Shown: piece by piece, positions 31,024 to 48,138 of the stretch
Layout: each line of letters starts with the position of its first letter
Position numbering within the stretch: position 1 is the first letter of the stretch
NCBI GenBank assembly: GCA_041743505.1
Contig: JBGTMQ010000019.1
Coordinates: forward strand, 70,147 to 134,146
DNA length: 64,000 bases
Origin: Candidatus Saccharimonadia bacterium
GTDB lineage: Bacteria; Patescibacteriota; Saccharimonadia; UBA4664
Reading direction: 5' to 3'
Translations under genes and position numbers: made by a program
Notes under the pieces: model-generated
What the model saw: only the letters and a program-made list of their open reading frames with translations
The model's database searches: none
What the model was told of the DNA's origin: nothing

Positions 31024-31115
31024 TCCTCTTGGAAACTGTGGCCCAGCTGCTTTGGAAACGACAACTTGTCGTCCGGGCGGCTGGGCCCTTTCTATCTGAA
31101 TGCTACAATAGCCCT

Positions 31116-32301: not shown

Positions 32302-32703
32302 ATGAGGCTAGCAACGACCTTTGCAGGCACCATTCTCGCAATGTGCCTGCTCGGCAGCTGTTCAGGTGGCGGCAACATCGCCGCCCAGGTAACCGGCCCG
32401 CTCATCTGCCAGCAACTCAACAACTCGCTGACTCAGCAGGCACTCGCACTCGCGATCCAACACACCATGGTTGGCCAGGCCACGCCGGCCGATCTTGCTA
32501 CCATCATGACCTCAGCTGCCAGCCTCCGCGTAATGGCGGGACAAGCCGGCGAACCGCTCAAGTCCCGGCTCACAGACGCGGCCACTGCCGCCGAAGGGGT
32601 AGGCGATGGCCAAGTCACACCCGGGGACACTCAAGCTGTAGCTGACGCGTTCACCAGGCTCGGAGAGGAGGTCGGCAAGACATGCAATCCGCCCGTTCGA
32701 TAG
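32302..32703 (+). CDS. putative lipoprotein
   Basis: signal peptide with lipobox-like LLGSC; Ala/Thr-rich mature part. Confidence 0.45.
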   Translation: MRLATTFAGTILAMCLLGSCSGGGNIAAQVTGPLICQQLNNSLTQQALALAIQHTMVGQATPADLATIMTSAASLRVMAGQAGEPLKSRLTDAATAAEGVGDGQVTPGDTQAVADAFTRLGEEVGKTCNPPVR

Positions 32704-33914
32704 CGCGCCACGCATCTCTCCTAGTGGCTACCGTCCTGTCCATGCTAGGATTGGCGGTTCCAGCCCAGGCCGGACCAGACACCACGCTCTGTCGCTCTAG
32801 TACCACCCGGGCCACCATCCCGGACACGTTCCCACTGCAAGCCTGTTTCGACGGCAACAAGCTGGTAGTCGTCAACCCGCTCGGCTTCCCCGTTATCGTG
32901 AGCGTTACAGGCAACGGCGTTGGCCAAGCGGTGCGTGTTCCCAAGCTCGGCGGCACCATACCAAGCGCCGTTCTATCCATCCTTGGCCCACACACGCCCA
33001 ACCTGGTGCCACCCGGTTACCAAATCGCAGTCCCCATCGGGGCCGGCGAGGCCAAAGTGTCGCTTTCGACCACCCCGGACCTAACCAGGGGCTATGCCGT
33101 CATCAAGATCATCTGGAATTACTTGCCGGTAGGTGAAAGCGCCAAGGCTATTGCTGATCTGGTCAGTGAGTTAACCGACGTCAGCGAGCAACACACCAAC
33201 TGCCGCAACACCAACAACAACTGGGGCGACATTGGTTGCGATGCGCTGCTCTACCGCAACATCACCTTCGCCGTGGCACGAGCCGGCATACAAGGCGGCG
33301 TCGCCGGATCCTTGAAGACCCTGATCGACTCGGCCGCCTGGTCCAACGCGGCCACTCAAGACGCACTCAAGGCCCGAAACGGTGTATCGGCATTCACCAT
33401 CAAGGCTGCTCCCGCGCCTCAGGCACCCAAGCTGCCACCGGCCCAAAGCAACCAACCGCCGCCCAGCAATCTGCCCGTGGTAACCAACAACCCGCCGTCA
33501 CCGGCGCCGAACCACACTCAACCGCTTCCGCCGCCACCAGTTACTGCACCGGCGCCAACACCGCCGTCACGCACGATAACCGTCCAAAATAAGTACCTGG
33601 TGGGCGCCAGCGGCATGGCCGAAGATAGCATCCCGGCTTATTTGTCATCACGGATGGAGCCCAGGTGCCGGGTCAACGGATGCATGCTCGACGGCACCGA
33701 AATGGCTTCCGGTGACACCATCACGGTCACATGCTACGCGCACGGCGCCGCGATGACCAATCAGAACCAATCCATCTCAGATGATGACAACAACCCCAAC
33801 CGGGCCGACTCATCGCTCTGGTATTACGGTACCCGTAGCGGTCAGCGCGGCTTCATCTCGGAGGTCTACATCACATCCCAGCACCGTGGCGGCCTCGGCC
33901 TCCCCGTCTGCTAA
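32682..33914 (+). CDS. secreted protein with proline-rich linker and Cys-containing C-terminal domain
   Basis: signal peptide ...AVPAQAG. PAPQAPKLPPAQSNQPPPSNLPVVTNNPPSPAPNHTQPLPPPPVTAPAPTPP linker. Start overlaps the upstream lipoprotein gene by 22 nt. Confidence 0.5.
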   Translation: MQSARSIARHASLLVATVLSMLGLAVPAQAGPDTTLCRSSTTRATIPDTFPLQACFDGNKLVVVNPLGFPVIVSVTGNGVGQAVRVPKLGGTIPSAVLSILGPHTPNLVPPGYQIAVPIGAGEAKVSLSTTPDLTRGYAVIKIIWNYLPVGESAKAIADLVSELTDVSEQHTNCRNTNNNWGDIGCDALLYRNITFAVARAGIQGGVAGSLKTLIDSAAWSNAATQDALKARNGVSAFTIKAAPAPQAPKLPPAQSNQPPPSNLPVVTNNPPSPAPNHTQPLPPPPVTAPAPTPPSRTITVQNKYLVGASGMAEDSIPAYLSSRMEPRCRVNGCMLDGTEMASGDTITVTCYAHGAAMTNQNQSISDDDNNPNRADSSLWYYGTRSGQRGFISEVYITSQHRGGLGLPVC

Positions 33915-34032
33915 TAGTTACCAAATTTTCATCGCTGCGGGAGTTCACCCCGAACCCGGCCGGGGAGTGCATTGTATTCCCCGGCCGTATATATAAAAAA
34001 GCCCCGCTGGATGCGAGGCTTGAAAGATCGTG

Positions 34033-34485
34033 TCAGCCGAAGAGGGCAGGCCGGACTAGGACATTAGCGTCAGGAAACTGCTCCCGGCACTGGACAACCG
34101 TGTCCGAACAATCTGACTTGAGAGCATGCAGCCCATCTGAGCGACGGTCGGTTCTAAAACGAAGCCAAAGCCCTTGGTCATCCCGTTGATAGACCACCTC
34201 ATAATATGGTGGCCTCATCACTGAATCCAGCATGGCGTAGTAGACCACGAAGGTTTCGTAACCACCATCCGCCGCCTGGTTAGAGCGGGTATAGATTAGA
34301 CCACAAACCGCCGGCCTCGTCACTCCGAAGGCTTCACCATCAACGAGCATGAAATCGCGCGAAACCAGGTACTCGTTGATGCGGACGGCCGCCGGATAGT
34401 CGTGCACCCAGGCCTGGGTACGGTCAACATTCCAGAATACTCCCTCACCGGTAAAGCCGGTTGCGAGTTGGTCTCCAGGATTCAC
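34033..34485 (-). CDS. hypothetical protein
   Basis: 150-aa ORF followed (minus strand) by a hairpin plus T-run near 33995..34025. Confidence 0.4.
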   Translation of the reverse strand: MNPGDQLATGFTGEGVFWNVDRTQAWVHDYPAAVRINEYLVSRDFMLVDGEAFGVTRPAVCGLIYTRSNQAADGGYETFVVYYAMLDSVMRPPYYEVVYQRDDQGLWLRFRTDRRSDGLHALKSDCSDTVVQCREQFPDANVLVRPALFG

Positions 34486-34597
34486 GGATGCTCAGCTCCC
34501 TTAGTTGTGAACGATCGATCTTTAATTATAGCACAAATACTAATAATTGTCAATTAAAACTCATCGAAAAATCCCTAACGCGCTACAATAAGCCATA

Positions 34598-34783
34598 ATG
34601 AAACGCATCATCATCCCCAAATCCAAACTCGCCCGCCAGCTCGGCGAAGCCGCCCAACTCAAGGCCGAAGCCACCGAACTGCTCCGTCAACTTGAACAAC
34701 AGTACCTTGGTCAAACCGTTCAGAAACCAGGCGGTTGGCGGCAAGATCCACTCGGGTGGTCTAAACGTCAGCGCAAAAACTAA
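34598..34783 (+). CDS. hypothetical small basic protein
   Basis: 61-aa ORF, coiled-coil-like. Confidence 0.25.
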   Translation: MKRIIIPKSKLARQLGEAAQLKAEATELLRQLEQQYLGQTVQKPGGWRQDPLGWSKRQRKN

Positions 34784-35077
34784 CTACTGGCCGTCAAACG
34801 GATTGCTGGTGCCAATGGCCGTCGGCGCAACCTGGCCGGGCACCACTTGGAGGCTTTTGACGGTCTGGACGGCGGATTTATCAAACACGATTTTAGACTG
34901 CGCCGGAGTCACAGTAGTCTCTGCCGGCTTAGTGTTAAAGGCCGCATTAACCACCCAGCCGGTATAACCAAACAGCGCTACCAGCGACAGCCCGAGCACA
35001 GACGGCCCAAATTGCTTGAGTAGCTTGAGTAATCCGGCCTGGCTGAGATCAAGTTTTAAATTCATCTTCATGTTCAT
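34784..35077 (-). CDS. small membrane-anchored pilus assembly accessory protein (PilP-like position)
   Basis: last gene of the pilMNO operon; one N-terminal TM segment. Confidence 0.35.
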   Translation of the reverse strand: MNMKMNLKLDLSQAGLLKLLKQFGPSVLGLSLVALFGYTGWVVNAAFNTKPAETTVTPAQSKIVFDKSAVQTVKSLQVVPGQVAPTAIGTSNPFDGQ

Positions 35078-35079
35078 AA

Positions 35080-35634
35080 TTATGGCTTCACATAAGCGTT
35101 AACTGTCATGGCGTAAGTAATGGGCTTACCCTTACCGGTCGTCGTCACCGTCAAGGTCGTGACACTGGTAAACCGGCTCAGGTGCTCCACTTTGGCCAAG
35201 AAACTCTGTAACTGGCCATATGACCCTTGGACTTGAAAAGTAATAGGCAGAGCCAGGACGTTACCAGCGGCCACAGTTTGCGAGGTCGCCGTAGGCAAGC
35301 CAACCGGGCTGGTAAAGTTCACGTTGGATAACGCGAGACCACTGCCGCCGGCTATGGTTTGCAGCTGAGCCAATATAGCGGTCTGGTTCTTGGCTCGGGG
35401 CAGCGCGTCCTCAATCAACGGCAGGATCGGTTCAATCTCCCGGTTGTATTGGTTTTTAAGCCGGTTCAGGTACTGGATTTGCTCTTCGGCGCTGGCTTGC
35501 TCGGCCAATTGCACAGCTAGTTTATCGGTGGTCGCCTTCAAGTTGGTCAGCGCATAATAGTAACCAGCGCCACCCGCCACTACAAATGCGGTAATTGCTC
35601 CCAATAAAACATAGAAAAATTGCTTGGGTTTCAT
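35080..35634 (-). CDS. pilO: type IV pilus assembly protein PilO-like
   Basis: bitopic; N-terminal TM; coiled-coil then periplasmic domain; 4-nt overlap with pilN. Confidence 0.55.
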   Translation of the reverse strand: MKPKQFFYVLLGAITAFVVAGGAGYYYALTNLKATTDKLAVQLAEQASAEEQIQYLNRLKNQYNREIEPILPLIEDALPRAKNQTAILAQLQTIAGGSGLALSNVNFTSPVGLPTATSQTVAAGNVLALPITFQVQGSYGQLQSFLAKVEHLSRFTSVTTLTVTTTGKGKPITYAMTVNAYVKP

Positions 35635-36170
35635 CTGGCCTGCCCCGGCTTAAAGCCGATTACTACGCTGGACTGGAACGAGCTGGCGTTCTGGGCAATA
35701 TTCTCCAGGTCAACGCCACTAATTCGCGGCGAGTTAGCTGCAGCGTCCCGAAAGGCCAGCATGGAATTGTAGCTGTCGCCCGTAACGGTGACACGTACGG
35801 GCTTCGTGTCATCGCCGGTTAGCGTAATACTAACGATGGCCACGCCCTGAGGTAGCACCTTAGCCAGGTCATCCAGCAATAGCGAAAAGCGCGTCTGAGT
35901 ACTTTGGATCGTCTTAATTGCGGTCAACCGGTCCGCCGCTTCCCGCGACTTTTTAACGTTCGGCGCATGACTGGCAATTGTTTGTTGCTTATCGGCAACG
36001 TCACGGGTTAGCGCATTAGCCTGCTGCCCCAAAAAGTACAGTGTGACGCCAAATATCGCCGTCAGCACAATCAGCACTAGTACCAACATGCGCAGATAAC
36101 CCAGAACCCGGCGGTTAAGCTTGGCATAATGCATCTGCTCCTTGATGTCTGGCGACAAGAGGTTAATCAT
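35631..36170 (-). CDS. pilN: type IV pilus assembly protein PilN-like
   Basis: MINLLSPDIKEQ...RRVLGYL N-terminus (PilM-binding peptide) then TM; ATGA overlap with pilM. Confidence 0.6.
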   Translation of the reverse strand: MINLLSPDIKEQMHYAKLNRRVLGYLRMLVLVLIVLTAIFGVTLYFLGQQANALTRDVADKQQTIASHAPNVKKSREAADRLTAIKTIQSTQTRFSLLLDDLAKVLPQGVAIVSITLTGDDTKPVRVTVTGDSYNSMLAFRDAAANSPRISGVDLENIAQNASSFQSSVVIGFKPGQAR

Positions 36171-37219
36171 AACGTGCCCTCCAGCCGCGCCAACCCGATA
36201 GCGGTCGTGTACATGGGCGCCTCCAGTGCCGAGACATTCTGGATGTTTTTGAGCAGAAGACCCTCCCACGGCGCAGCAATATTAACCGGAATGCCAAGCT
36301 GTTGGCTCATGTATTCAACCAGCCCGGGCATACCGGCGCTACCACCGGCCAAAATAACTGTTTGAATCGGCCGCTTATCCGCGCCACGGTCAGCGTAGAA
36401 TTTCATCACCCGCTTCATCTCACTACAAATAGTATCAAGCTGAGGCTTCATCGCCGCCGTAATCTTAACCTGGAGTCCGGACGGGCCAATGCCGAACTTA
36501 AACTTAATTTCATTCGCTTGCTCGTGTTTAATCTCCAGCTCGTTCATCAGCTGAACGGTCAAGTTGTCTCCACCCAGCGCGATGGTGTCTGTCAGGCGGG
36601 TAACCCGGTCGTGCACGGCCAGGTCGATCGAGTTTGAGCCCATATCTGCCACCAGAGTCACCTTGTCCATGGGCTTGGCCGACAACAAAGCCCTCGTCAC
36701 GGCCGACAGGCTTGACTCAATAAACACGACCTCCAGGTTCATCAAGGAAAATAGCTTGATATAGCTGTCTACGATCGCCCGCGGTGCCGCCACCATCAGC
36801 ACCTGGAGATGCTCGGTTTGACGCTCGATGATCTCATAATCAATATACAAATCCGGCAAAGGCACCGGCACATACTGCTCGGCCTCCAGTTTGACCGCCG
36901 CGTCAAGGTCGGCCGTTTCCATCGGCGGTAGTTGCAACACCCGGGTAAATGTCTTGGCCACCGGCAAGGCCGTAGCCACTCGGGTAGCGGTAATGTGACC
37001 GTAACTCATTTGGGTCAATAGCGGCTTGAGCGCCTTAGCAATTTCCTGTGGGTCCACAATAATGCCCTCAACAATGGCATCATCGGGGAACATTGCATAA
37101 CCATAACCCAACACTTGCATTCCCTTGCTGGTGGGGCGCAATTGAATCATTTTAGCAGTCCGGGTACCAAGGTCAAACCCGAACAGCGGTTCATATTTGT
37201 AAACGAGGCGAACTTGCAT
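36167..37219 (-). CDS. pilM: type IV pilus assembly ATPase-fold protein PilM
   Basis: actin-like ASKHA fold signature FGFDLGTRTAKMIQL...; 350 aa. Confidence 0.8.
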   Translation of the reverse strand: MQVRLVYKYEPLFGFDLGTRTAKMIQLRPTSKGMQVLGYGYAMFPDDAIVEGIIVDPQEIAKALKPLLTQMSYGHITATRVATALPVAKTFTRVLQLPPMETADLDAAVKLEAEQYVPVPLPDLYIDYEIIERQTEHLQVLMVAAPRAIVDSYIKLFSLMNLEVVFIESSLSAVTRALLSAKPMDKVTLVADMGSNSIDLAVHDRVTRLTDTIALGGDNLTVQLMNELEIKHEQANEIKFKFGIGPSGLQVKITAAMKPQLDTICSEMKRVMKFYADRGADKRPIQTVILAGGSAGMPGLVEYMSQQLGIPVNIAAPWEGLLLKNIQNVSALEAPMYTTAIGLARLEGTL

Positions 37220-37253
37220 CTATATAACCATAACAATATTCATTTTAGCACGC

Positions 37254-38672
37254 TTAGAGAGCCTCGTAGTATCGCACATCCCATGAACTGCTACCCCCCG
37301 AAGAGCTGCTGCCGAAGGTAATGTTACCAGAGTTACTCAAGGTTATTTTTTGTGCCATAATCGCGCCAATATTCCCACCATTGCTCAGCGTCAGCGCTGT
37401 CCAGCGGGCATAAAATGTACTGCTGGCGGCCAAACCTTGGTTATTAATACTAACGGTCTGCACATTCATGGAACTGTTAAGGTTAGAGCCTGTCACGGTG
37501 GAGCAGTCTGGCGAACATGAGGCTGTTGAGTAGAAGGTAATAAAATTGGCACCTATGCCATTTGTGTTGGTGGCTACAACCGATGAATTGCTCATCGTAA
37601 TACCGCCAGAGCCGTCGATCATGACGGTGGGTGTCGTGGTAACGCCAGCCGCCAGCCTCAACTGACTGCTATTAGATAGGCTCAGCGTTCCAGTAATCCA
37701 GGCGTTTCCGGACAACGTCACATTGCAACTGTTACTCAACGAGACGTTGCCGGTGATCTTCACGTTGGCCGGCCAAGTCTTAGCTTGACTACCACTGCAA
37801 GAGGCCGCCGAGCCGCTGATATTATGAACCGGCCCGGCAGGAACAGCGGCTTTTTGCCCGTCGCGGTCATAATCGGGCAAGGTCACGGCAGCGACGCCGC
37901 TGGCTTCTGTCAGCCCCGGATTAGACAAACCGGTAGTAGTAATTTGGCCGTTGGCTTTAGTGTCACCATAAATGCGGGCACTATTAGTTATAGTAATGGG
38001 ATTGTTTTGCGTCCCCATCGGGCAAATCTGCGGCCACGTAGCGTTTACAGGAACGGGGCAACGCTGGTTTGCTACTGATACGGCCACCGGCGAGGCAGCC
38101 GAACCAATCCGGGATGAGTTACTCATGGTGAGGAAACCTCCGACATAAACCGGGCCGGTGGTAATAGTCGCAGAGTTGCTCATAACCAGCCCGCCTGGCC
38201 CGGTCTGAATCACGTAGCCACCGGAGGGGGTGCCTTCAATGATGAGCCGGACTTTTTTGGTAGATTTAGGTGTCACGGATGAGGCCGGGGCATAAACCTT
38301 ACCCACGGCATAAACAATTTTTTCATTGGCAATAGTGCCGCTGGTAACACAGGTTTCGTATGTAGCCCGGCCCTGGGCATTGCTATAGAGCGTTACTGGG
38401 TTGGAACCACTGGAGGTTATCGGGCAAACAGTGTTGGTACCGGTGTAGGAGCCACTTTGGTTGATCTCATACATAAACCGGTCTGCGCCAGCTTCGGCCG
38501 CATAAACCGCATTGGTAGTATAGGTCGAACGTTTAGCGGCTCCCAGGTTATAGAGTCCCAGCGTCATCACTCCCATCAAAATCGTCAAGACAACGAAGCC
38601 TTGGACAAGCATAAGAATGAGCAGGAAGCCATTTTCTGAGCTACGTAATGGTAATTGCAATCGTTTCATCAT
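37254..38672 (-). CDS. large pilin-like protein (PilX/PilY1-position tip or minor pilin, lacks Glu5)
   Basis: N-terminal NGFLLILMLVQGFVVL hydrophobic helix resembling a class III signal without the conserved Glu. 472 aa, rich in G/S/T/N (beta-helix-like). Confidence 0.45.
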   Translation of the reverse strand: MMKRLQLPLRSSENGFLLILMLVQGFVVLTILMGVMTLGLYNLGAAKRSTYTTNAVYAAEAGADRFMYEINQSGSYTGTNTVCPITSSGSNPVTLYSNAQGRATYETCVTSGTIANEKIVYAVGKVYAPASSVTPKSTKKVRLIIEGTPSGGYVIQTGPGGLVMSNSATITTGPVYVGGFLTMSNSSRIGSAASPVAVSVANQRCPVPVNATWPQICPMGTQNNPITITNSARIYGDTKANGQITTTGLSNPGLTEASGVAAVTLPDYDRDGQKAAVPAGPVHNISGSAASCSGSQAKTWPANVKITGNVSLSNSCNVTLSGNAWITGTLSLSNSSQLRLAAGVTTTPTVMIDGSGGITMSNSSVVATNTNGIGANFITFYSTASCSPDCSTVTGSNLNSSMNVQTVSINNQGLAASSTFYARWTALTLSNGGNIGAIMAQKITLSNSGNITFGSSSSGGSSSWDVRYYEAL

Positions 38673-39355
38673 TTATTCCTCAATGCAGCAGTTGTTGTAT
38701 AAGAACTCGTGTACGTACGGGACCCGATCGTCTTGCTCTCGGTTACGGTGAAGCTAATGGCTTCAGTGCCGGCCGGCGAGGTTACAGTAGCGCCGTTAGC
38801 ATCTAGGTAAGAGGTAGTCAAATTAGCCACATCCTCAACAATGACCGAATCGGCCGGACAGCTGCCGTTAGCGATGGCTGGCGGGCAAGTAGTGACTGCC
38901 CGGTTGCTAGGAGCCGAGGTATTAGCTATTACGCGCTTATACAACCGGCGGGTAGTATTATCAAGGTAAAAGATAATGTCGTCTGTGTAGAGGTTGTTAT
39001 GCAAGCCATCAATATAGATAAGGTTATTTGACGTGTCACGTGATGGCACGGACACAATGAGCGTAGTGCCGGAGCCGGCCGCACCTGACCAACTGTAAAG
39101 GTTGCCTGGTGCGCCTGGAGCGTTGTTATCAGCCAGAACATTATTTGCCTGAACGGAGCGGCCCTCACGAGCAATACGGGCCACTGCCTCCACCGCTGCT
39201 TTGGTGTTTACTAGCACCTCGGTCTGGGTGTAGTCCTGCTGGCTAGAACGTATGCTATCAGTCACAAAGTTACCGGCTACAAGAAGTAAAACACTAGTCA
39301 AGCTAATGGCCATTAGCACTTCCAATAAGCTAAAACCCCGTTCATCGGGACTCAT
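38669..39355 (-). CDS. type IV minor pilin (prepilin-type N-terminal cleavage/methylation domain)
   Basis: ERGFSLLEVLMAISL class III signal peptide. Confidence 0.7.
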   Translation of the reverse strand: MSPDERGFSLLEVLMAISLTSVLLLVAGNFVTDSIRSSQQDYTQTEVLVNTKAAVEAVARIAREGRSVQANNVLADNNAPGAPGNLYSWSGAAGSGTTLIVSVPSRDTSNNLIYIDGLHNNLYTDDIIFYLDNTTRRLYKRVIANTSAPSNRAVTTCPPAIANGSCPADSVIVEDVANLTTSYLDANGATVTSPAGTEAISFTVTESKTIGSRTYTSSYTTTAALRNK

Positions 39356-39753
39356 TTATTAATCCCCCGGCTTGCCACTAGCGTAGTCACACTAGTGGTC
39401 TTAAGGCCGCCTTTGCCGGTAAAGGTGATCGTCAGGTCAATCTGCTTTAGCCCGTTAGGCTGAAGTTCGGTAATGGTGGCAGTAGCCGACCGCGGCGCTA
39501 GGAGCGTGGGGTACGGCGTAAGAATTCCCGCTATATTCTGGGTGCCAACCACCAGATTGTTATATGGCGTATTGCGGTATTGCTCAATCTGTTGTTGTGC
39601 CAACTGGTTAACGATAACCATATTGCTGGAAAAACGGTTCAAATCCCGCACTTCAATAAAAAACTGAAGCATAGCCATAATCATAACGCTCATTACAGTT
39701 ATGGTTACAATAAGCTCAAGGAGCGAAAACCCCCGCTCATCAGCATATTTCAT
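39352..39753 (-). CDS. type IV minor pilin (prepilin-type N-terminal domain)
   Basis: ERGFSLLELIVTITVMSV class III signal peptide. Confidence 0.7.
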   Translation of the reverse strand: MKYADERGFSLLELIVTITVMSVMIMAMLQFFIEVRDLNRFSSNMVIVNQLAQQQIEQYRNTPYNNLVVGTQNIAGILTPYPTLLAPRSATATITELQPNGLKQIDLTITFTGKGGLKTTSVTTLVASRGINK

Positions 39754-39782
39754 ATTGATATTATACTGCTTACGCTCATCAA

Positions 39783-39813
39783 AAACGACCCCGGTAGAGA
39801 GGTCGTTTTCAGA
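39783..39813 (-). terminator. rho-independent terminator after pilA
   Basis: aaacgacc-ccggtagagag-ggtcgttt hairpin with T-run on the minus strand. Confidence 0.6.
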
Positions 39814-39828
39814 TTGGCTCAGGAAGTT

Positions 39829-40263
39829 CTAGTTGTTGTTAATCAGCTGGAAGTTACGGCTGGAGCCAGTACATGTTGCATCGTTGTTGGTCCCAGTGCT
39901 CGAGTCACCGCCATTCTCAAGACAAGCCTTGAGGGTGTAGGTGGTGTTGGTACCAGCCGGGGTGTAGGTGTAAACCAGCACACCAGTGTTCTTGGGGTCG
40001 GTCGGCACGTTCGTTAAGATTGGCGGGTTACCAGCCGTCAGGTCAGTGAGCGCCGCCGGATAAACATTGTTGCTAACAAAGTACTCTTCCAGTCCCTTCT
40101 GGATGGCCTTAAGATCGGTTTTACGCTGAGTGTCGCGGGCCTTCTTGGGCGCGGACGTAATGTTGGGGATAATCAACAAGGCTAGGATGCCAATGATCAC
40201 AATAACGATCAAAAGCTCCAGGAGCGTGAAACCGCCTTGTTTTTTAATGATGTTTTTAAGCAC
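39829..40263 (-). CDS. pilA: type IV major pilin PilA
   Basis: KQGGFTLLELLIVIVIIGILA prepilin signal; KARDTQRKTDLKAIQKGLEEYF; C-terminal Cys pair. Confidence 0.8.
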   Translation of the reverse strand: MLKNIIKKQGGFTLLELLIVIVIIGILALLIIPNITSAPKKARDTQRKTDLKAIQKGLEEYFVSNNVYPAALTDLTAGNPPILTNVPTDPKNTGVLVYTYTPAGTNTTYTLKACLENGGDSSTGTNNDATCTGSSRNFQLINNN

Positions 40264-40361
40264 GAGTGCTCACCTCCTTAATATTTGTGGAACTAGAATA
40301 GAGATAATAAGCTCTATATAAATTCACTATAAAGTGCTTACGTTTGAGTGTCAAATGAGAT

Positions 40362-40402
40362 CAAAAAAAGCCCCCGCCCCGGCCAAAAAACCGGAGCGAG
40401 GG
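40362..40402 (-). terminator. rho-independent terminator
   Basis: GC-rich imperfect 12-bp hairpin (cccccgccccgg/ccggagcgaggg) followed by T7 on the minus strand. Confidence 0.6.
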
Positions 40403-40414
40403 TAACGCACAACA

Positions 40415-40981
40415 CTAGCTATGTTCTGGCAAGCCCGTTTCGCGTCTTGATGCCGCCGAGCGACGAAGTGAGGCCAATTCCTCAGCCAAATTGTCTGCGC
40501 TGGACTTGTGGTCATCCGCGCGCGCGGCCAAACCGCGCTTCTCCAGCTCCTGCAATTGGGGCTGCTGGGCGGCCCACTTCTTGGCCTGTACCTCAGCCAC
40601 ACCCACCACCGCGATGAGGGCAGCGGTCAGGATAAAGCGGCTGGGCTTTCCCGTCACCCGGTTATGAACCAGCTTGACGAGGGGAGCACGCACAAGTGCA
40701 GAAGCTAGCTCAATACTGCCACGAACAGGCTTAGCCGCAACACCGGCGGTCATGGTAGCCAGCACACCCACCTTCAGATTCTTTGCCAGGCGCGGCCGCT
40801 TGGGTTTCAACCCAGGCTCGGTCTTTGCCATAACAACGCCGGTTATGACGGCGCCGACAACAGCTGGGAGGTACTCGAGCGGTGGTTCCCGGAGCAACTC
40901 CGGGTTCTCAACCACCGCGGCAATCCGCTGCCGGGCACTCTCGGCCAGGGCCTGCAGGTGCTGCGTGTAATTCGGCATCAA
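40415..40981 (-). CDS. hypothetical membrane-associated protein
   Basis: 188-aa ORF with hydrophobic stretches and its own terminator. Confidence 0.4.
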   Translation of the reverse strand: MMPNYTQHLQALAESARQRIAAVVENPELLREPPLEYLPAVVGAVITGVVMAKTEPGLKPKRPRLAKNLKVGVLATMTAGVAAKPVRGSIELASALVRAPLVKLVHNRVTGKPSRFILTAALIAVVGVAEVQAKKWAAQQPQLQELEKRGLAARADDHKSSADNLAEELASLRRSAASRRETGLPEHS

Positions 40982-41054
40982 TACTCCTAGCGAACGAAGA
41001 GCGGATCTGCTCCGAATGGGGCAGATTTACACTTTATAGCACAAAAACAAAGTT

Positions 41055-41093
41055 AAAACAAGACTCCGCCCCGGCCAAAAGCCGGAGCGGAGA
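41055..41093 (-). terminator. rho-independent terminator (same hairpin family as 40362..40402)
   Basis: ctccgccccggc-caaaa-gccggagcggag hairpin; weak T-run on the minus strand. Confidence 0.5.
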
Positions 41094-41114
41094 CAAAACC
41101 GGTGACAGACAAAA

Positions 41115-41603
41115 CTACTGTCGGTATACGGGGTCTTCCACGAATGTTGGTAGTTGCTTCAATTCGTGTCGGTAGGCAGCAATAGCCGCCTCGTGTTCCG
41201 ATGGCAATTTTCCTCCCAGTCTCGGGTGAAATTTGATGGCGAGAAGCCAACGGTGATTGCGCAGCCAAGCCATGCGGGGCTCATAGTGTCTTTCGACACT
41301 CAACTCGGGCTTGGTTAAATGCTTGTAGAGCAGGGTTATAACAACGCCACTAACGATGGTAACCAAGAACAACACAGTGCCGGCGTTGATGAATTTTCGT
41401 GCCTCAGGACTCCAGTCGAACGGCAGTGGCCATACCAGCAGGAGCGTATAAGCGCCGACACCGGCGCCGGATGTTGAGAGAGCCAGGACAGGCATAACCC
41501 AAACTGGTATTCGGCAGTATCGCCACGTTACAAGCCAGATTACAACGACGACCAACCCCAGTACGACAACTGCTGTTGTGGGGGGAAAAATATGGAGGGT
41601 CAT
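41115..41603 (-). CDS. 3-TM membrane protein with cytoplasmic tail
   Basis: RBS AGGGAG 5 nt before ATG (MTLHIFPP); 162 aa. Confidence 0.45.
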   Translation of the reverse strand: MTLHIFPPTTAVVVLGLVVVVIWLVTWRYCRIPVWVMPVLALSTSGAGVGAYTLLLVWPLPFDWSPEARKFINAGTVLFLVTIVSGVVITLLYKHLTKPELSVERHYEPRMAWLRNHRWLLAIKFHPRLGGKLPSEHEAAIAAYRHELKQLPTFVEDPVYRQ

Positions 41604-41732
41604 GTTGCTCCCTGTGTCAGGAAGGTACTGGAGGGGAAACGAACTAACAACTAGATTAATATACTCCTCAAGCCAAAATACGCAAGAGTTTGTCCACAAT
41701 GTTAATCAAAACAAGAATACCCCCAGATATGA

Positions 41733-41770
41733 GGACGCCCGCCCCGGTCATTGACCGGGGCGGGCGTAAG
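41733..41770 (-). terminator. strong GC hairpin terminator
   Basis: cgcccgccccggtca/tgaccggggcgggcg, about a 15-bp perfect stem. Confidence 0.55.
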
Positions 41771-41783
41771 CTGTGAAGAGTGG

Positions 41784-41909
41784 TTATGCAGCCTTGTCGT
41801 AAGGCGCTTCGTCCTCTTCACGGACCAACACGGCCCGGCGGCGCAGAAGCCCGGCTGCTACCAGCCCCACTATTGCCACCGCAATCAAAACAATCCAGCC
41901 GCGATTCAC
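41784..41909 (-). CDS. 41-aa single-TM peptide (GTG start), paralog B
   Basis: GGAGG-N6-GTG; VNRGWIVLIAVAIVGLVAAGLLRRRAVLVREEDEAPYDKAA. Confidence 0.4.
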   Translation of the reverse strand: MNRGWIVLIAVAIVGLVAAGLLRRRAVLVREEDEAPYDKAA

Positions 41910-41940
41910 AATTCACCTCCTTTACTGACTCGATGGAGGC

Positions 41941-42054
41941 CTATTTATCGGTGTTCCGGTTAGCCCGGCTCCGCGCGCGAAGCTTCGCGAACAACCCCAG
42001 CGCCGCCGCCACCAGACCGATGCGTTTCCACGACTGGCCTGACCACTTGGGCAT
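41941..42054 (-). CDS. 37-aa single-TM peptide, paralog A
   Basis: GAGGGGG-N6-ATG; MPKWSGQSWKRIGLVAAALGLFAKLRARSRANRNTDK. Shares the GLVAAxLGL core and an identical RBS-spacer (GGTGAAT) with paralog B. Confidence 0.4.
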   Translation of the reverse strand: MPKWSGQSWKRIGLVAAALGLFAKLRARSRANRNTDK

Positions 42055-42147
42055 GATTCACCCCCTCGAACATGTCGGATGTGCCCTTCGGACTATTAGG
42101 TGATACCACAGGGGTAAAATAATTGCTAGCTTAAGTAGTTAGGGCAA

Positions 42148-43380
42148 TTAAACAGAGTTACTGATCTCTGAGATCGGACCAAACACCGAGATAACGATAA
42201 AACCAACCATGCCTCCGAGCACAATAATAAGAATCGGTTCAATGATAGAAGTGATGCCGGAAATTACCGTGTCAACCTCACGCTCATAAAAGCCGGCCAG
42301 TTTGAGCAAAATTTCATCAATTTTGCCCGTTTCCTCACCCACCGACAGCATTTGGCCGACGATAGCGGGGAAGTGTGGGGAGGCCCGGATTTGCTCGCTC
42401 ATGGGCCGGCCGTTCTTAACTTTTTGGGCCACGATAGCTAATTCATCGCGGTAGACCGTGCTGCCTAGAGCACTTTGAGTAGCCTTCAAGGCATCGAGCA
42501 CCGAGATGCCCGAGGCCATCAGCGAACCAAAAGTACGGGCAAACCGCGCTATATTAACCTTAACAAGGATCGGGCCAATAATAGGGGCTTTGAGCAGCAG
42601 CCGGTCAAAAATACGCTTACCGCTATCGGTCCGGTGCCAGCGCACAAAAGCAATGATTGCTACAATCGCGCCACCAATAAGGTAATACCAGCCATGCACC
42701 AGGAAATCGGACATTGCTAACATAATTTTTGTGTAGATAGGCAGGTCGGCGCCCGCATCCTCAAAAATGCTGGACAATTTCGGCACGATCACAGTCATTA
42801 GGAAAAAGAATGCGCCAAAAGTCGCTATTGTAATAACGGCCGGGTAGATCATGGCGCTCTTGACCTTGCTCACGATCTCGGCGTCTTTTTCCTGCTGGGT
42901 GGCCAGGCGGTCAAGCACGTCATCCAGAATACCGCCGGTTTCACCGGCCCGCACCATGTTGACATAGATATTATTGAATACGTCCGGATGAGCGGCCAGC
43001 GCGTTGGCTAAGGTAGCACCGCCTTCAACCTGTTTGGATACATCAGCCACCACCAGCTTAAGTTTCTTCGACTCGGATTGTTCCGCCAGGATGCTCAGGG
43101 CCTGCGCGATCGGCACACCGGCATTAATCATCGTGGCAAACTGACGGCTCATGATAACCTTATCTTGTAATTTAACTCCGCCGCCCAGGTGTATTTTCTC
43201 CAGAAATCCATCGAGACCGCCAATACCAGCCGGCTTGGCCTTTGCCTCCTCCTTGAGCAGGATCGGCGTCAGACCTTTATCGGCCAGGCTGGCTGCAGCT
43301 GCCGCCCGGTCAGCCGCAAATAACGTACCCTTCTGGAACACCCCGGACTTGTCACGCGCACTGTAACTAAATGATGCCAT
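42148..43380 (-). CDS. pilC: type IV pilus inner-membrane platform protein PilC (GspF family)
   Basis: two GspF repeats and three TM segments; 410 aa. Confidence 0.9.
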   Translation of the reverse strand: MASFSYSARDKSGVFQKGTLFAADRAAAAASLADKGLTPILLKEEAKAKPAGIGGLDGFLEKIHLGGGVKLQDKVIMSRQFATMINAGVPIAQALSILAEQSESKKLKLVVADVSKQVEGGATLANALAAHPDVFNNIYVNMVRAGETGGILDDVLDRLATQQEKDAEIVSKVKSAMIYPAVITIATFGAFFFLMTVIVPKLSSIFEDAGADLPIYTKIMLAMSDFLVHGWYYLIGGAIVAIIAFVRWHRTDSGKRIFDRLLLKAPIIGPILVKVNIARFARTFGSLMASGISVLDALKATQSALGSTVYRDELAIVAQKVKNGRPMSEQIRASPHFPAIVGQMLSVGEETGKIDEILLKLAGFYEREVDTVISGITSIIEPILIIVLGGMVGFIVISVFGPISEISNSV

Positions 43381-43383
43381 TGA

Positions 43384-45435
43384 TTACTCCCGGGTTACTC
43401 TTAAGATCTCTTCGATGGTCGTCCGGCCCATCAAAGCTTTTACAAAACCGTCCTGTTGCATGGTTAACATACCGCCGCGGACGGCCTGTAGCTGAATGTC
43501 ATCCGAGGTTGCGTGACCCACAATCATCTTCTGGATCGAATCACTCACTTCCAGGACCTCGTAAATACCCATGCGCCCCTGGTACCCAACCCCGCCACAA
43601 GCTTCACACCCGGGACCGGCTTTATACAGAATAAATTGACCGGCCTTGAGATGGGCTGGATCCGGAGCCGGCCCGGCCTGCAGGGGCGCGGGAGGCGGGG
43701 CTGCCGCGCCGACAACCAGCGCAGCAGCAGGGGCAGTCACGGGTGCCGGCGGTTGCGGTGCTGCCGGGGAGCCGGCCTTTTTGGCGTCCTCGACCGACCG
43801 GTTGATAATATTCGGGTCGGCCGCGATCTTATCCAGAATCGAATTCGCCGTATCAATATCATGCGTCGGCTCAATAATCCGGTTCTTCTTGCGCTCGTTC
43901 GGCTCTACCCGCACTGGCTTTGGCGCCTCTTGCGGCACCGGTGAAGGTACAGCCGGCTTCTCGGCCGGGATCGCTCCGCCGCTCTTCAGTTCATTGAAAT
44001 GCTTTAGCGCAATATCAAGCTGGAAATCCCGCTTGATATTACTAAGCTCTGTGCCCTCGGGCACGTACGACTGGCGGCAAACCGGGCACAGCCGCCGCAC
44101 CAGCCGCTGGCCAATCACTGTGTTAACCGTACTCGCAATCAGAAACGGCTCAATGCCCATATCCAACAACCGGGGTAGGGTAGTGGCGGCATTATTAGTG
44201 TGCAGCGTGCTCAAAACCACGTGCCCGGTCAAAGCCGCCTGCACAGCCAAATCCGCCGTCTCACCGTCACGAATCTCACCCACCATGATGATGTTGGGGT
44301 CTTGCCGCAACAGCGCCCGCAAACCGGCCGCGAAACTCATGCCGGCCTTAACGTTGGTTTGCGTCTGGTTGACACCGGTCACGCGGTATTCCACCGGGTC
44401 CTCAATCGTCGAAATATTCACGCCCGCCGTGTTGAGCATTGACAATATCGAATACAACGTAGTGGACTTGCCCGAGCCGGTCGGACCCGTTACCAGCGTC
44501 ATACCATGCGGCTTGTGCAGGTTGCGGCCGATAGTATCCAGCGCATTACCGGCAAAGCCCAGCTCTTCCAATGTCAGCGCCCGGGCCGATTCGTCCAAAA
44601 TACGCATGACGACCTTCTCGCCGTCCATGATCGGCAAAGTCGATACCCGCAGCGCCACTTGCTTCTGCCCGATACTAAACTTAAACCGCCCGTCCTGTGG
44701 TACCCGGTGCTCATCAATTTTCAAATTCGACAAAATCTTAATACGCGACACTACCGCCGCCAATATTGGCTTTGGCAAAGTCATGGTTTCGCGCAGTACA
44801 CCATCGATGCGGTAACGCACCTGCACAATATTTTCCCGCGGCTCAATATGAATGTCGGATGCCCGGCTCTTGATGGCGTATTCCAATATGACGTTTACCG
44901 TTTTGGCGATTGGTGCGTCTTCGGCTATATCCTTTGCCGACACCTTTTCCTCGGCCGCCGCGTCCGCGCTGCTGTCCTTGATGGCCTTTGTTATCTCGCT
45001 CGATATGTTACCCTTGTATTGGTCAATAGCACCCAACACATCGCTTGGCACCGCCAAATAAGACTTAAGTTTCCCGCCGACTTGCTTGCTAATAAAGTCT
45101 GCCGCCTGGAAGTCCTCAGGATCGGCCATAGCCAGCTGATAGTGGTCCTCCTCCACACCAAATAACACCGCCTGATACTTCCGCGCGATCCGCTCCGGGA
45201 TCTTTAGCAGCACCTCGCGCGGAATCTTAACGTCACCCAATTCTACGAACGGCACCTTAATACTGTCCGCAAACAGTTTGGCCAGGTCCTTCTCGTTAAT
45301 GAATTTATTTTTGAGGACGGCAGCTTGCAGCGTTTCGGTGGATCCTTGCTTGGGCGTAGCATCATTAAGAACGGTCTCTTTTACGCGACCGGAGTCAATT
45401 AACAGCTTTCTGAGCTCACCATCAGATATGTGCAT
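43384..45435 (-). CDS. pilB: type IV pilus assembly ATPase PilB (GspE family) with low-complexity insertion
   Basis: Walker A GPTGSGKSTTL, Asp box, Walker B, His box, tetracysteine CPVC...CEAC. 683 aa. Confidence 0.9.
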   Translation of the reverse strand: MHISDGELRKLLIDSGRVKETVLNDATPKQGSTETLQAAVLKNKFINEKDLAKLFADSIKVPFVELGDVKIPREVLLKIPERIARKYQAVLFGVEEDHYQLAMADPEDFQAADFISKQVGGKLKSYLAVPSDVLGAIDQYKGNISSEITKAIKDSSADAAAEEKVSAKDIAEDAPIAKTVNVILEYAIKSRASDIHIEPRENIVQVRYRIDGVLRETMTLPKPILAAVVSRIKILSNLKIDEHRVPQDGRFKFSIGQKQVALRVSTLPIMDGEKVVMRILDESARALTLEELGFAGNALDTIGRNLHKPHGMTLVTGPTGSGKSTTLYSILSMLNTAGVNISTIEDPVEYRVTGVNQTQTNVKAGMSFAAGLRALLRQDPNIIMVGEIRDGETADLAVQAALTGHVVLSTLHTNNAATTLPRLLDMGIEPFLIASTVNTVIGQRLVRRLCPVCRQSYVPEGTELSNIKRDFQLDIALKHFNELKSGGAIPAEKPAVPSPVPQEAPKPVRVEPNERKKNRIIEPTHDIDTANSILDKIAADPNIINRSVEDAKKAGSPAAPQPPAPVTAPAAALVVGAAAPPPAPLQAGPAPDPAHLKAGQFILYKAGPGCEACGGVGYQGRMGIYEVLEVSDSIQKMIVGHATSDDIQLQAVRGGMLTMQQDGFVKALMGRTTIEEILRVTRE

Positions 45436-45462
45436 AGTTAGAATTATTGTAGCATAAGCAGC

Positions 45463-45744
45463 TTAAACGCGTTCATGCAATAGCCGGGCTACGCGGCTGG
45501 CCCGTACAGATTCGCTCTTGATAATACGCCGCCCCCGTTGCGTCAGTTTATATCGTTGATTATCTCTCGTTAGCTCGATAAGGCCATCCCGCACAAGGCG
45601 TTGCAGCGCATAATAAAACGTTCTCTCGCCTATTATTAAGGTACTTTGCGAATCCTCCGCCACTTGAGTCGCAATCTCCGGTCGGGTCGCTTCGCCCGCT
45701 GCAAGTGCCAGCAAAATATGAAGGGTGACAGGGGTTGGTGGCAT
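45463..45744 (-). CDS. PadR-like winged-helix transcriptional regulator
   Basis: 93 aa; LHILLALAAGEATRPEIATQV...YYALQRLVRDGLIE pattern. Confidence 0.5.
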   Translation of the reverse strand: MPPTPVTLHILLALAAGEATRPEIATQVAEDSQSTLIIGERTFYYALQRLVRDGLIELTRDNQRYKLTQRGRRIIKSESVRASRVARLLHERV

Positions 45745-45932
45745 GGCGAGAAATTCCAGTTTATATCCGGATAGGATACTGAAACCATTTCAGTAGGGGG
45801 GCTTAAACAATATGTCATGACCCGCGAAGTAAATAAACAAAGCTCATGCTTGCATTTCGGTTTTTGTTCACTTACATTGAAAACACAACTCGCAGGTGAG
45901 GCGAAAAGAGGTCTATAAAGGGAGATTTTCGT

Positions 45933-47831
45933 ATGCGCTTGCGAGCGGTGGTTCTAGTTGGTGTGATGCTTGGGCATAGTTTGGGTGCAGCGCTACTTGC
46001 TGTTCCCGGAACCGCTTCAGCCGCCAGCGGCGGCATTTATATCAGCGAACTTCAGACCAGCGGCCCCTTGTCCGGCCAGTCTAGCTACGAATTTGTAGAA
46101 CTCTATAATTCCAGCGACGTTGATGTGTCACTCAAAGGTTGGCAAATTGAATACCGGGCTGCCAGCACCGCCAATGGCAACGATTGCTCCCTGGGCTGGC
46201 CCAAAACTCCCACCATACTACCGGATGCAGTCGTAAAAGCCCACGGCTTCTACCTACTTGCGAACACGAAATACCCTCTCCAGTCGGACGGCCGGTTTAG
46301 CTTTGACCTGGCCTCTACCGCCGGCACCATCCGCATCCAGGACGCCAATAAACAGGTTGTCGATGCACTAGCCTGGGGCGACTCTACCGCTTGCGGCGCC
46401 GGCTCTCCAGCGCCCATCACGTCCGGCCAAAGCCTTGAGCGGCTCCCTGGTGCATCGGCCCCGTCAGGCGGCAATGGCTTCGACACCGGCGACAACCTGA
46501 ACGACTTCGCTCTGCGCCCAAGTCCCGAACCGCAAGGCACCGGCGCTGCCACCGAAGCGCCGCTCAATTTCGCTGGCATAGCTGAGGGCGATCCCACCGG
46601 CCAGTTGGCGCTCTCTGAGCTCCTCATCAACCCACACCTGGACCAGCCGGCCTTTGTCGAATTCAAAAACACCGGCCCGGATGTAATTGTCCTCAGCGCC
46701 TATGCCCTCAAAGTCGGAACAGCCAGTTACAATTTGCCCCACCATGTCATACTATCCGGCGGCTATGCGGTCGTCCGCTCAGACGTCTTTCCGCTATCTT
46801 TGCCCACTTCGGGCGGTAGTGTCAGCTTGATGGACGCAGCCGGCACCCCAACCGACACCATCACCTGGGACGAAGCACCGCTCGAAGCCGGCTTAATCGC
46901 AGGCGACAGCGACTGGACGTGGACCGCCAAGCCAACGCCGGGTACGGCCAATGAGGCTGTTGCGCTACCCGAAACCATTCCATTGTCGCTAACCGACACG
47001 GGCCTCTCGTCTCTTTATCCAGTCCTCAATATAACTGAGCTCTTGCCCGACCCGGCCTCACCAGCCACCGATGCCAGCGATGAATTTATTGAGCTGCACA
47101 ACCCGAATTCATTTGATGTTAATGTAGCGGGCTTTAGCCTCAAATCCGGTCAGACATTTAGTGGCAACTACACACTGCCGGACCTAACGGTTCCCGCGGG
47201 CGGGCATATAGCACTGACATCAGCTCAAACACATTTGGGCCTATCAAATAGCGGCTCGTCAGTCGGACTGTTCGATCCGCTAGGTAGTCAGATTGGTGCG
47301 ACCGTCAGCTATACCGCCGCCAAGGCCGGCAATACCTGGGCGCATTTCGAGTCCGGCTGGGCTTGGACAACCACGCCTACACCTGGCGCACCAAATATCC
47401 TGACGGCACCCGCCGATGTGGCAGGTGCCGCTGCCGCTGCGGCTGCGGCCAAGAAAGTCAAAGCCGCAGCCGCCACCAAAAAACCAAAGGCCGTCGCGGC
47501 CAAGGCTGCCAAGGCGCCAAAAGCGCCCAAGGAAAAGAAAACTGTTGCCACTAAATTCAAGGCAGCCGCCGCCAAAATCAAGCCAACCCTAGAAGCCGCC
47601 GCCGGCGGGCCGTGGGTCCTCCTGGTCCTGGTTGGTCTGACTATTTGTTATTGTATATACGAGTTCCGCTATGACTTACGAAATTACTACCACCAACTCA
47701 GAGGCCACACAGGCCGTAGCCGCCAAGCTGGCCCGGCTCTTGAAGGGCGGGGAGACGATCGAGCTGGCCAGCGACCTGGGCGGGGGCAAAACGACCTTCA
47801 CCCAAGGCCTAGCCGCAGCCTTGGGTTATAG
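45933..47831 (+). CDS. cell-surface lamin-tail-domain (LTD) triple-repeat protein with KA-rich tail and C-terminal TM anchor
   Basis: signal peptide; three LTD-like modules (IYISELQTSG...EFVELYNSS; LALSELLINPH...FVEFKNTG; LNITELLPDP...EFIELHNPN); AKKVKAAAATKKPKAVAAKAAKAPKAPKEKK; TM WVLLVLVGLTICYCIY. Confidence 0.7.
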   Translation: MRLRAVVLVGVMLGHSLGAALLAVPGTASAASGGIYISELQTSGPLSGQSSYEFVELYNSSDVDVSLKGWQIEYRAASTANGNDCSLGWPKTPTILPDAVVKAHGFYLLANTKYPLQSDGRFSFDLASTAGTIRIQDANKQVVDALAWGDSTACGAGSPAPITSGQSLERLPGASAPSGGNGFDTGDNLNDFALRPSPEPQGTGAATEAPLNFAGIAEGDPTGQLALSELLINPHLDQPAFVEFKNTGPDVIVLSAYALKVGTASYNLPHHVILSGGYAVVRSDVFPLSLPTSGGSVSLMDAAGTPTDTITWDEAPLEAGLIAGDSDWTWTAKPTPGTANEAVALPETIPLSLTDTGLSSLYPVLNITELLPDPASPATDASDEFIELHNPNSFDVNVAGFSLKSGQTFSGNYTLPDLTVPAGGHIALTSAQTHLGLSNSGSSVGLFDPLGSQIGATVSYTAAKAGNTWAHFESGWAWTTTPTPGAPNILTAPADVAGAAAAAAAAKKVKAAAATKKPKAVAAKAAKAPKAPKEKKTVATKFKAAAAKIKPTLEAAAGGPWVLLVLVGLTICYCIYEFRYDLRNYYHQLRGHTGRSRQAGPALEGRGDDRAGQRPGRGQNDLHPRPSRSLGL

Positions 47832-48138
47832 CGGCAACGTTACCAGCCCCACCTTCACCCTCAGCCATGTCTATAAACTTGAATCAGGTCTAGAGTTGCA
47901 CCACTACGACCTCTACCGCCTTAACGAAGGGGGAGTAGTCGGCGATGAGCTGGAGGAGGATTTAAACGACAACCAGGTCATAACTATCATTGAATGGGCC
48001 GGCATTATGGACGCCCGTCTGCCCGCTGACCGGATGCGTATCCACATCGACACCACCGGCGAAACCGACCGCCGCCTCACCCTGCTTTCCGGCGGCCCGG
48101 TATCTGAGCAATTAATAAAGGAGTTGAAGAGCACATGA
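47671..48138 (+). CDS. tsaE: tRNA threonylcarbamoyladenosine biosynthesis protein TsaE
   Basis: ASDLGGGKTTFTQGLAAALG Walker A in TsaE context; about 155 aa. Confidence 0.8.
   Translation: MTYEITTTNSEATQAVAAKLARLLKGGETIELASDLGGGKTTFTQGLAAALGYSGNVTSPTFTLSHVYKLESGLELHHYDLYRLNEGGVVGDELEEDLNDNQVITIIEWAGIMDARLPADRMRIHIDTTGETDRRLTLLSGGPVSEQLIKELKST

Follow-up and report, generated by a model that had tools for sequence, protein, structure and literature searches.

A pilB-type gene in a 64,000-nucleotide stretch of DNA from a Candidatus Saccharimonadia bacterium (contig JBGTMQ010000019.1; hereafter the window) encodes a type IV pilus assembly ATPase in which the two cysteine pairs of the predicted zinc-binding CM subdomain are separated by exactly 156 residues, and the extra sequence carries a short, near-invariant peptide motif between two spacers that are predicted to be disordered. 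We lean, with modest confidence, towards a reading in which this insert is a flexible tether on the outside of the ATPase hexamer that displays a docking motif to a peripheral partner.

The interval 43597-44088 spans residues 450-613 and runs from the outer edge of the first cysteine pair, CPVC, to that of the second, CEAC. The motif published for the GspE/PilB family is CXXCX21-40CXXC, with X29 in EpsE (PMC5061722), and the spacing observed here is about four times the upper end of that range. HMMER comparison with solved PilB structures aligned residues 2-456 and 580-681 of the query to residues 20-484 and 488-584 of Geobacter PilB (6olj), which leaves about 123 query residues unmatched and places 31 residues between the cysteine pairs of the Geobacter protein. 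The same architecture is found in relatives of the gene. All 120 of the closest homologues among the matches listed (66-100% identity, 645-736 residues, from NCBI, JGI, ENA and Logan assemblies that represent independent metagenome-assembled genomes and metagenomes) contain two CXXC pairs 127-164 residues apart and, where named, belong to Saccharimonadia or Patescibacteria. A scan of GTDB, with one genome per species, for the peptide pattern IL[DE][KR]IA[AS]DP returned 35 species, nearly all of them labelled Saccharibacteria, Saccharimonadia or Patescibacteria, and no cultured-strain names occur among these 35 matches. The pattern lies in the PilB reading frame at 35/35 loci. One of these is truncated by the end of its contig; at the remaining loci (34/34) the pattern falls between the cysteine pairs, which stand 119-163 residues apart. 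From these searches the insertion appears to be confined to a subset of Saccharimonadia, a soil-dwelling group within these ultra-small bacteria of the candidate phyla radiation; it counts 35 GTDB species when the strict pattern is applied, and 12 PilB-type clusters when proteins are grouped at 50% identity.

In GC-rich DNA a false insertion of this kind could arise from a frameshift, from misassembly or from a chimeric join, and the G+C content (GC) does reach 0.70 locally at 43600-43799, where long alternative-frame open reading frames (ORFs) overlap the region. However, the reading frame is unbroken from the first to the second CM half, Tandem Repeats Finder detected no repeat over the PilB ORF, and the architecture recurs, with invariant cysteine pairs, in the 120 listed homologues and the 35 GTDB loci, which derive from unrelated assemblies; we therefore regard a frameshift or assembly chimera as excluded for all practical purposes. 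An earlier note, made from the letters of this DNA, had reported the 156-residue gap between CPVC at residues 450-453 and CEAC at residues 610-613 and had called an insertion of this size inside the metal-binding CM subdomain unusual. The coordinates are confirmed, and the gap lies far beyond the published X21-40. Its suggestion of a lineage-specific insertion is borne out by the 120 listed homologues and the 34/34 uncut loci, which are mainly Saccharimonadia or Patescibacteria, and the variation in length that it anticipated is seen among these relatives (119-164 residues between the cysteine pairs). Slippage in GC-rich repeat DNA, which it had named as a source of such variation, finds no tandem repeat in the gene to act on, and the artificial fusion that it held up as a possible refutation is contradicted by more than 150 independently assembled relatives that share the in-frame architecture and the invariant cysteine pairs.

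The inter-cysteine alignment divides the region into five segments (Table 1): the first half of the canonical CM loop, linker 1, the conserved insert motif NERKKNRIIEPTHDIDTANSILDKIAADPNIINRSVEDAK, linker 2 and the second half of the canonical loop, DPAHLKAGQFILYKAGPG. The earlier note had described the insert as rich in proline and alanine, and the count supports it (24 alanines and 23 prolines among the 116 residues 485-600), but the emphasis was misplaced: low complexity is limited to the two linkers (residues 486-512 and 553-590), and the central 40 residues contain only 15% proline plus alanine. Across the related GTDB loci the linkers contain more proline plus alanine the higher the GC of the locus (Spearman rho 0.66, p = 2.5e-5); in three low-GC loci (L025-L027, 44-45% GC) the linkers consist of 40-47% lysine plus glutamate around an unchanged motif. 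Because linker composition follows genome GC in this way, the proline and alanine richness is incidental, and the linkers behave as unconstrained disordered spacers of which presence and approximate length alone are maintained. At one locus (L030) only about 5 free spacer residues lie N-terminal of the motif. The short ordered-looking stretch that the note had picked out in the middle of the insert is the near-invariant motif, which is under strong protein-level purifying selection.

The motif spans about 40 residues with the consensus EHKKGRVIxPxHDIExxKSILDKIAADPNIINRSAxDA, which can be summarised as KKGRVIxPxHDIE..SILDKIAADPNIINRS. The majority-residue frequency of the core SILDKIAADPNIINRS is 0.95, equal to that of the ATPase core (0.95) and comparable to that of the N2D domain (0.94), whereas the linkers reach only 0.31-0.38 and contain frequent indels; the motif thus has the form that defines the short-motif class, a conserved segment within fast-evolving disordered flanks. 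In an alignment of 79 sequences, to which the statements of invariance below also refer, the invariant residues of the motif are P523, I533, L534, I537, A538, D540, P541, N542, I543 and R546. An aliphatic stripe formed by I533, L534, I537, A538, I543 and I544 is broken by the invariant D-P-N turn, an arrangement that fits a fold-upon-binding interface better than an autonomous domain. At the DNA level the core occurs in 35 distinct versions that encode 11 peptides (34 GTDB loci plus the window), and codon entropy amounts to 1.30 bits at position 3, 0.35 at position 1 and 0.15 at position 2. Third positions that vary freely under a fixed peptide indicate selection on the peptide and not on the DNA or RNA, which argues against an overlapping coding or RNA element as the cause of the conservation.

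These data bear directly on the simplest explanation for the insert, namely that it is a tolerated low-complexity expansion in an insertion-tolerant surface loop with no role of its own. The drift of the linkers in length and composition, following genome GC, is what neutral expansion predicts, and residues of the CM loop of EpsE can be replaced without loss of function (PMC5061722). The motif between the linkers does not drift: its 16-residue core is conserved like the catalytic core while third codon positions are free across 35 species, its length is held at 39-42 residues, and it persists in proteins with core identity down to 45%, being duplicated in one such lineage. The selection data thus contradict a neutral expansion, which is strongly disfavoured and which we consider very improbable.

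The motif is restricted to PilB-type proteins. We searched a profile of 44 positions against 1.84 billion representative proteins (E up to 0.001), and it matched 13 clusters. Twelve consist of PilB proteins or PilB fragments that carry the motif at the corresponding site; the other is a weak, spurious match to an unrelated repeat protein. Pfam searches with the insert or the motif at E up to 10 gave a chance TAP_C match alone, Foldseek returned no match for the isolated motif model, and there is no second copy of the motif within the 64-kb window. A word-indexed homologue search with the 48-residue motif alone also gave no matches, too few 5-mer words being shared for such a search. The insert is without known homologue.

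A full-length AlphaFold2 (AF2) model, built on the 79-sequence alignment, has a mean predicted local distance difference test score (pLDDT) of 67.9. Both CM halves are modelled confidently (pLDDT 81-92), whereas residues 487-528 and 545-581 fall below 50, so that the linkers are predicted to be disordered. The motif helices at residues 533-539, 541-544 and 546-552 score 44-60 in the full-length model and 73-80 when the motif is modelled alone, and as a fold the isolated motif reaches only moderate confidence (pLDDT 72). Published work places the CM domain on the exterior of the hexamer (PMC5061722).

In all other respects the protein is a typical member of the GspE/PilB assembly ATPases, to which it belongs by domain content, catalytic motifs, fold, cysteine ligands and operon context. 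The Pfam family T2SSE (PF00437) matches at 432.3 bits, well above the gathering cut-off of 24.9, MshEN matches at 58 bits, and the best matches in the PDB are PilB, PilF and GspE. The key residues of Walker A (GPTGSGKS), the Asp box (STIEDPVEY), Walker B (DPNIIMVGEIRD) and the His box (GHVVLSTLHTN) are invariant, in agreement with the view, taken from the first inspection of the sequence, that the rest of PilB is canonical. The C-terminal domain carries the two CXXC pairs, and C450, C453, C610 and C613 are likewise invariant. The top Foldseek matches of the model are GspE, PilF and PilB, with E down to 1e-33, which supports the N2D plus C-terminal domain core fold; the target template modelling score is about 0.7, over alignments some 510 columns long to targets of around 385 residues, and with a model core of only moderate confidence. 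Only two expectations for the family fail. One is the CXXC-X21-40-CXXC spacing, which is 156 here and 119-164 in relatives; the other is the NCBIfam equivalog cut-offs, the best models being TIGR02538 (PilB) at 552.7 bits against a cut-off of 675.65 and TIGR02533 (GspE) at 548.6 against 630.25. The scores fall below these cut-offs because of the insert, and the hidden Markov models alone do not separate a PilB from a GspE assignment. The cluster to which the gene belongs also encodes PilC, prepilins, PilM, PilN and PilO, as is typical of a type IVa PilB operon. The gene product is best explained as a PilB-type ATPase for pilus extension that would be functional and would keep its predicted zinc-binding CM subdomain intact.

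Two features elsewhere in the protein deserve mention. The pentapeptide DPNII occurs twice in PilB, in each case after a helix: once where the Walker B strand begins (LRQDPNIIMVGEIRD; 44287-44301, residues 379-383) and once in the insert motif (AADPNIINRS; 43804-43818, residues 540-544). The second copy could be due to chance or could be the trace of an internal duplication; in an hhalign comparison of the motif with the rest of PilB, the best match was the Walker B region (P = 0.0024, probability 12%), which leaves internal duplication as the origin of the motif unproven. In the N-terminal 50 residues (45286-45435), the MshEN half-motifs for cyclic di-GMP look degenerate by eye (ELRKLLIDSGRV and LQAAVLKNKFI, compared with the RLGxxLLxxGLI type), and control of this PilB by cyclic di-GMP may be absent.

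The motif is also present in proteins that appear to have lost catalytic function. Over the core, the divergent PilB-like proteins P0126 and P0128 share 45-50% identity with the query. Neither has the lysine of Walker A (the sequences read GPISSGVTT and GPAGSGVTT, respectively), and their Asp and His boxes are degenerate, yet they keep the four cysteines and the insert motif, of which P0126 has two copies. To judge by their sequences these proteins may be pseudo-ATPase regulators. Retention of the motif in predicted inactive paralogues, together with its duplication, suggests a modular element whose value is independent of ATP hydrolysis in cis. A degenerate PilB-like entry was placed at L036:1373-3298, and a pilin gene, not PilC, follows P0128; the gene upstream of P0128 was considered as a candidate PilM and showed no similarity. 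Another locus, L037:8197-13340, shares its flanks with window positions 31029-48138 (a lamin-tail-domain protein, TsaE and TsaD on one side, RuvB, RuvA and RuvC on the other). Between these flanks it contains only a 593-residue motif-bearing PilB, in which MshEN is largely replaced by a proline- and lysine-rich stretch, and one pilin; the locus lacks PilC, the minor pilins and PilMNO.

We propose that a clade of Saccharimonadia gained an insertion of about 120 residues in the tip of the CM hairpin, a site on the hexamer's outer rim. Its two disordered spacers of about 16-40 residues each, rich in proline and alanine here owing to the GC-rich genome, would act as the tether, and the motif of about 40 residues, with its core SILDKIAADPNIINRS as an amphipathic helix-turn-helix, would be a docking element that folds upon binding. 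Six copies per hexamer could reach a few nanometres outward to a binding partner on the motor's periphery. Such docking might bring the motor to the assembly platform, keep it there or link it to a regulator. On geometric grounds the most likely partner, although this is a guess, would be the PilM ring around PilB in the type IV pilus machine; PilM is FtsA-like, and the arrangement would resemble the linker and C-terminal peptide of FtsZ binding to FtsA. That the motif binds, and what it would bind, we infer from the anatomy of the insert, from the conservation and selection that it shows, from its occurrence in PilB alone and from the disorder and helices predicted for it. The docking arm that the earlier note had offered as one possibility is compatible with all of this evidence, and its other suggestion, a regulatory loop, is a serious alternative if the loop acts on PilB itself. 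The presence of PilM, PilN and PilO in the same cluster as the motif-bearing PilB counts in favour of docking, and the reach of the arms, a few nanometres, together with the short spacer of L030, favours a peripheral target over the central PilC.

Several observations weigh against this proposal. The motif core is almost invariant, so that co-variation with a partner is not measurable. The motif-bearing PilB-like genes of L036 and L037 adjoin a pilin and not PilC or PilMNO, which implies that a partner need not be encoded nearby. Since the loop sequence of EpsE is interchangeable, the canonical CM loop is not known as a docking site. Finally, the AF2 monomer model would leave room for binding to a neighbouring PilB subunit.

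This last point leads to the possibility that PilB is its own receptor, the tethered motif acting as an autoregulatory latch that binds the N-terminal or ATPase domains of its own chain or a neighbouring subunit, and that stabilises the hexamer or, by way of the strands leading into and out of the CM subdomain, gates ATP turnover. A spacer as short as that of L030 requires a target near the CM domain, and restriction of the motif to PilB is expected if PilB is also the receptor. However, the motif is left undocked in the full-length AF2 monomer, with lower pLDDT than when modelled alone, which is weak evidence against binding in cis and is silent on the hexamer; and it is kept in paralogues that are predicted to be catalytically dead and would have no use for gated ATP turnover, although stabilisation of the hexamer would still make sense. 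Neither point is decisive, and we consider such a latch unlikely while taking it seriously. Binding to a membrane or to a small ligand such as a nucleotide messenger is suggested by the basic patch HKKGR that precedes the amphipathic helix and by the His and Asp residues that are common just upstream of it, but the hydrophobic face is short and aliphatic and lacks the aromatic or basic flanks typical of membrane-targeting helices, the upstream His and Asp residues are not invariant, and neither Pfam nor Foldseek revealed similarity to known ligand-binding families; a non-protein target is accordingly improbable. Docking to a peripheral protein partner can also be extended, by analogy, into a bolder version in which the CM knob has been turned into the docking point of the motor: six tethered copies of SILDKIAADPNIINRS would grip the ring of FtsA-like PilM, or some other component of the platform, as the FtsZ peptide does FtsA, and the dead paralogues would compete for the site as built-in regulators of pilus assembly in these episymbionts. 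This version is speculative, and we regard it as rather doubtful.

The type IV pilus cluster is encoded on the minus strand in the order PilB, PilC, two non-conserved ORFs, three prepilins, a 472-residue protein, PilM, PilN and PilO (Table 1), and the PilB-PilC-pilin order is conserved in related loci. No PilT was found within the 64-kb window. The two minus-strand ORFs between pilC and the first pilin, at 40415-40981 and 41115-41699 (188 and 194 residues, the latter a predicted membrane protein), match no Pfam family; in related loci where a pilin was found, it lies about 0.1-1.2 kb after pilC. These ORFs were rejected as partners of the motif since they are absent from the 35 related loci, bar one weak match of the 188-residue ORF (unk188) in L001, and they may mark about 1.9 kb of DNA inserted in this lineage, or be spurious. 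The PilN ORF as listed has a GTG start that overlaps pilM; an internal ATG yields MINLLSPD, which resembles the INLLP-type PilM-binding peptide of PilN proteins, so that the true start is probably near 36170. Upstream of the pilus operon and divergent from it, a plus-strand ORF at 45933-47831 encodes a secreted protein of 632 residues with three lamin-tail domains and an Ala/Lys-rich tail. It overlaps the TsaE ORF (47671-48138, plus strand) by about 160 nucleotides, and its last 50 or so residues look Arg/Gly/Pro-rich, unlike the rest, so that the end of the lamin-tail protein or the start of TsaE may be mis-set. Immediately upstream of pilB on the same strand, 45463-45744 encodes a small PadR-like winged-helix regulator (sub-threshold Pfam match) that has no counterpart in related loci.

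Table 1. Coordinates in the window of the pilB-type gene, the segments of its inter-cysteine region and other genes of the pilus cluster.
Feature	Position	Residues	Strand	Remarks
pilB-type ORF	43384-45435		minus	683 residues; MshEN N-terminal domain, N2D, ATPase C-terminal domain with predicted zinc-binding CM subdomain
Walker A GPTGSGKS	44464-44487	317-324	minus	invariant in 79 homologues
First Cys pair CPVC	44077-44088	450-453	minus	C450 and C453 invariant
Canonical CM loop, first half	43981-44076	454-485	minus	AF2 pLDDT 81-92; strand 455-457, helices 462-471 and 473-484; majority frequency 0.71, fixed length 36
Linker 1	43900-43980	486-512	minus	44% proline plus alanine; pLDDT below 50; 24% identity to relatives, 16-39 residues in relatives
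Conserved insert motif NERKKNRIIEPTHDIDTANSILDKIAADPNIINRSVEDAK	43780-43899	513-552	minus	fixed 39-42 residues, majority frequency 0.78; predicted helices 533-539, 541-544 and 546-552
Motif core SILDKIAADPNIINRS	43795-43842	532-547	minus	predicted amphipathic helix, D-P-N turn, second helix; majority frequency 0.95
Linker 2	43666-43779	553-590	minus	66% proline plus alanine; pLDDT below 50 (545-581); 24% identity to relatives, 17-40 residues in relatives
Canonical CM loop, second half DPAHLKAGQFILYKAGPG	43609-43665	591-609	minus	aligns to Geobacter PilB 488-512; pLDDT 85-91
Second Cys pair CEAC	43597-43608	610-613	minus	C610 and C613 invariant
PilC (T2SSF)	42148-43380		minus	Pfam T2SSF 203 bits; directly downstream of PilB in the same operon, likewise in 35/35 related loci
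Three prepilin-type genes (144, 133 and 228 residues)	38669-40263		minus	N_methyl and T2SSG matches
PilM	36167-37219		minus	Pfam PilM_2; also Pfam FtsA match
PilN	35631-36269		minus	Pfam PilN
PilO	35080-35634		minus	Pfam PilO

Cultured Saccharibacteria owe their twitching motility and their attachment to hosts to type IV pili, and two PilB paralogues occur in TM7x; the papers that describe these systems mention no insert (PMC11623550, PMC9894109). Our full-text literature searches found no published description of an insertion in the CM domain, and neither PMC5061722 nor the review of PilB cofactors PMC11656802 describes a case of a CM loop that carries an interaction element. Type IV pili are central to the movement and host attachment of Saccharibacteria and other episymbionts of the candidate phyla radiation, and the insert bears on two questions that type IV pilus and type II secretion systems have in common, namely how PilB stays on its platform and what the CM zinc knob does, the knob having no established function beyond structural stability. 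A strongly selected, PilB-exclusive peptide carried on flexible arms at the CM tip offers a natural handle on both motor tethering and the role of the knob, and a peptide of 16-40 residues could be used as bait for neighbours of the motor's rim. For annotation the finding is a caution, since the insert pushes these proteins under the equivalog cut-offs and the Pro/Ala richness is a by-product of GC. It leaves the current understanding of PilB motors standing.

Compared with the canonical GspE/PilB ATPases of known structure (V. cholerae EpsE, 1P9R/4KSR; Geobacter PilB, 5TSH/6OLJ; Thermus PilF, 5OIU), the protein has the same MshEN-N2D-C-terminal domain order, catalytic boxes, four cysteines and fold, and shares the operon partners PilC, pilins and PilMNO. 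It differs in the spacing of the cysteine pairs, 156 residues in place of 21-40 (X29 in EpsE, X31 in Geobacter PilB), and in the roughly 120 additional residues at the hairpin tip, with a conserved motif that is absent from every solved homologue.

Parallels outside the family are analogies only. The C-terminal linker of FtsZ and the conserved peptide at its end tether FtsZ to the actin-like FtsA. The PilB insert likewise has variable disordered spacer sequence that carries a short, highly conserved and partly helical peptide, and PilM, the candidate receptor, has a Pfam FtsA match. Unlike the FtsZ peptide, the insert is not a free C-terminus but a loop within the chain, fixed at either end in the zinc ribbon; the resemblance between the peptides (D-P-x-hydrophobic-hydrophobic-x-R) is impressionistic only. 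In the E2 chains of 2-oxo-acid dehydrogenase complexes, a peripheral-subunit-binding domain (PSBD) between Ala/Pro-rich linkers serves as a docking site, and the likeness lies in a helical module of about 35-40 residues between P/A-rich arms outside an oligomeric core. The PilB motif is distinguished from it by the lack of sequence, profile or fold similarity, with no Pfam match at E up to 10 (and hence none to E3_binding, PF02817) and no Foldseek match, and by a P/A composition that is not kept in low-GC relatives. Closer to home, the N1E domain of GspE bound to the cytoplasmic domain of GspL (4PHT) and the N-terminal PilB cofactors PilZ and FimX (PMC11656802) provide examples of this ATPase family being tethered or regulated at a PilM-like platform via a flexibly linked element, although these cases, unlike the PilB insert, use N-terminal domains or separate proteins.

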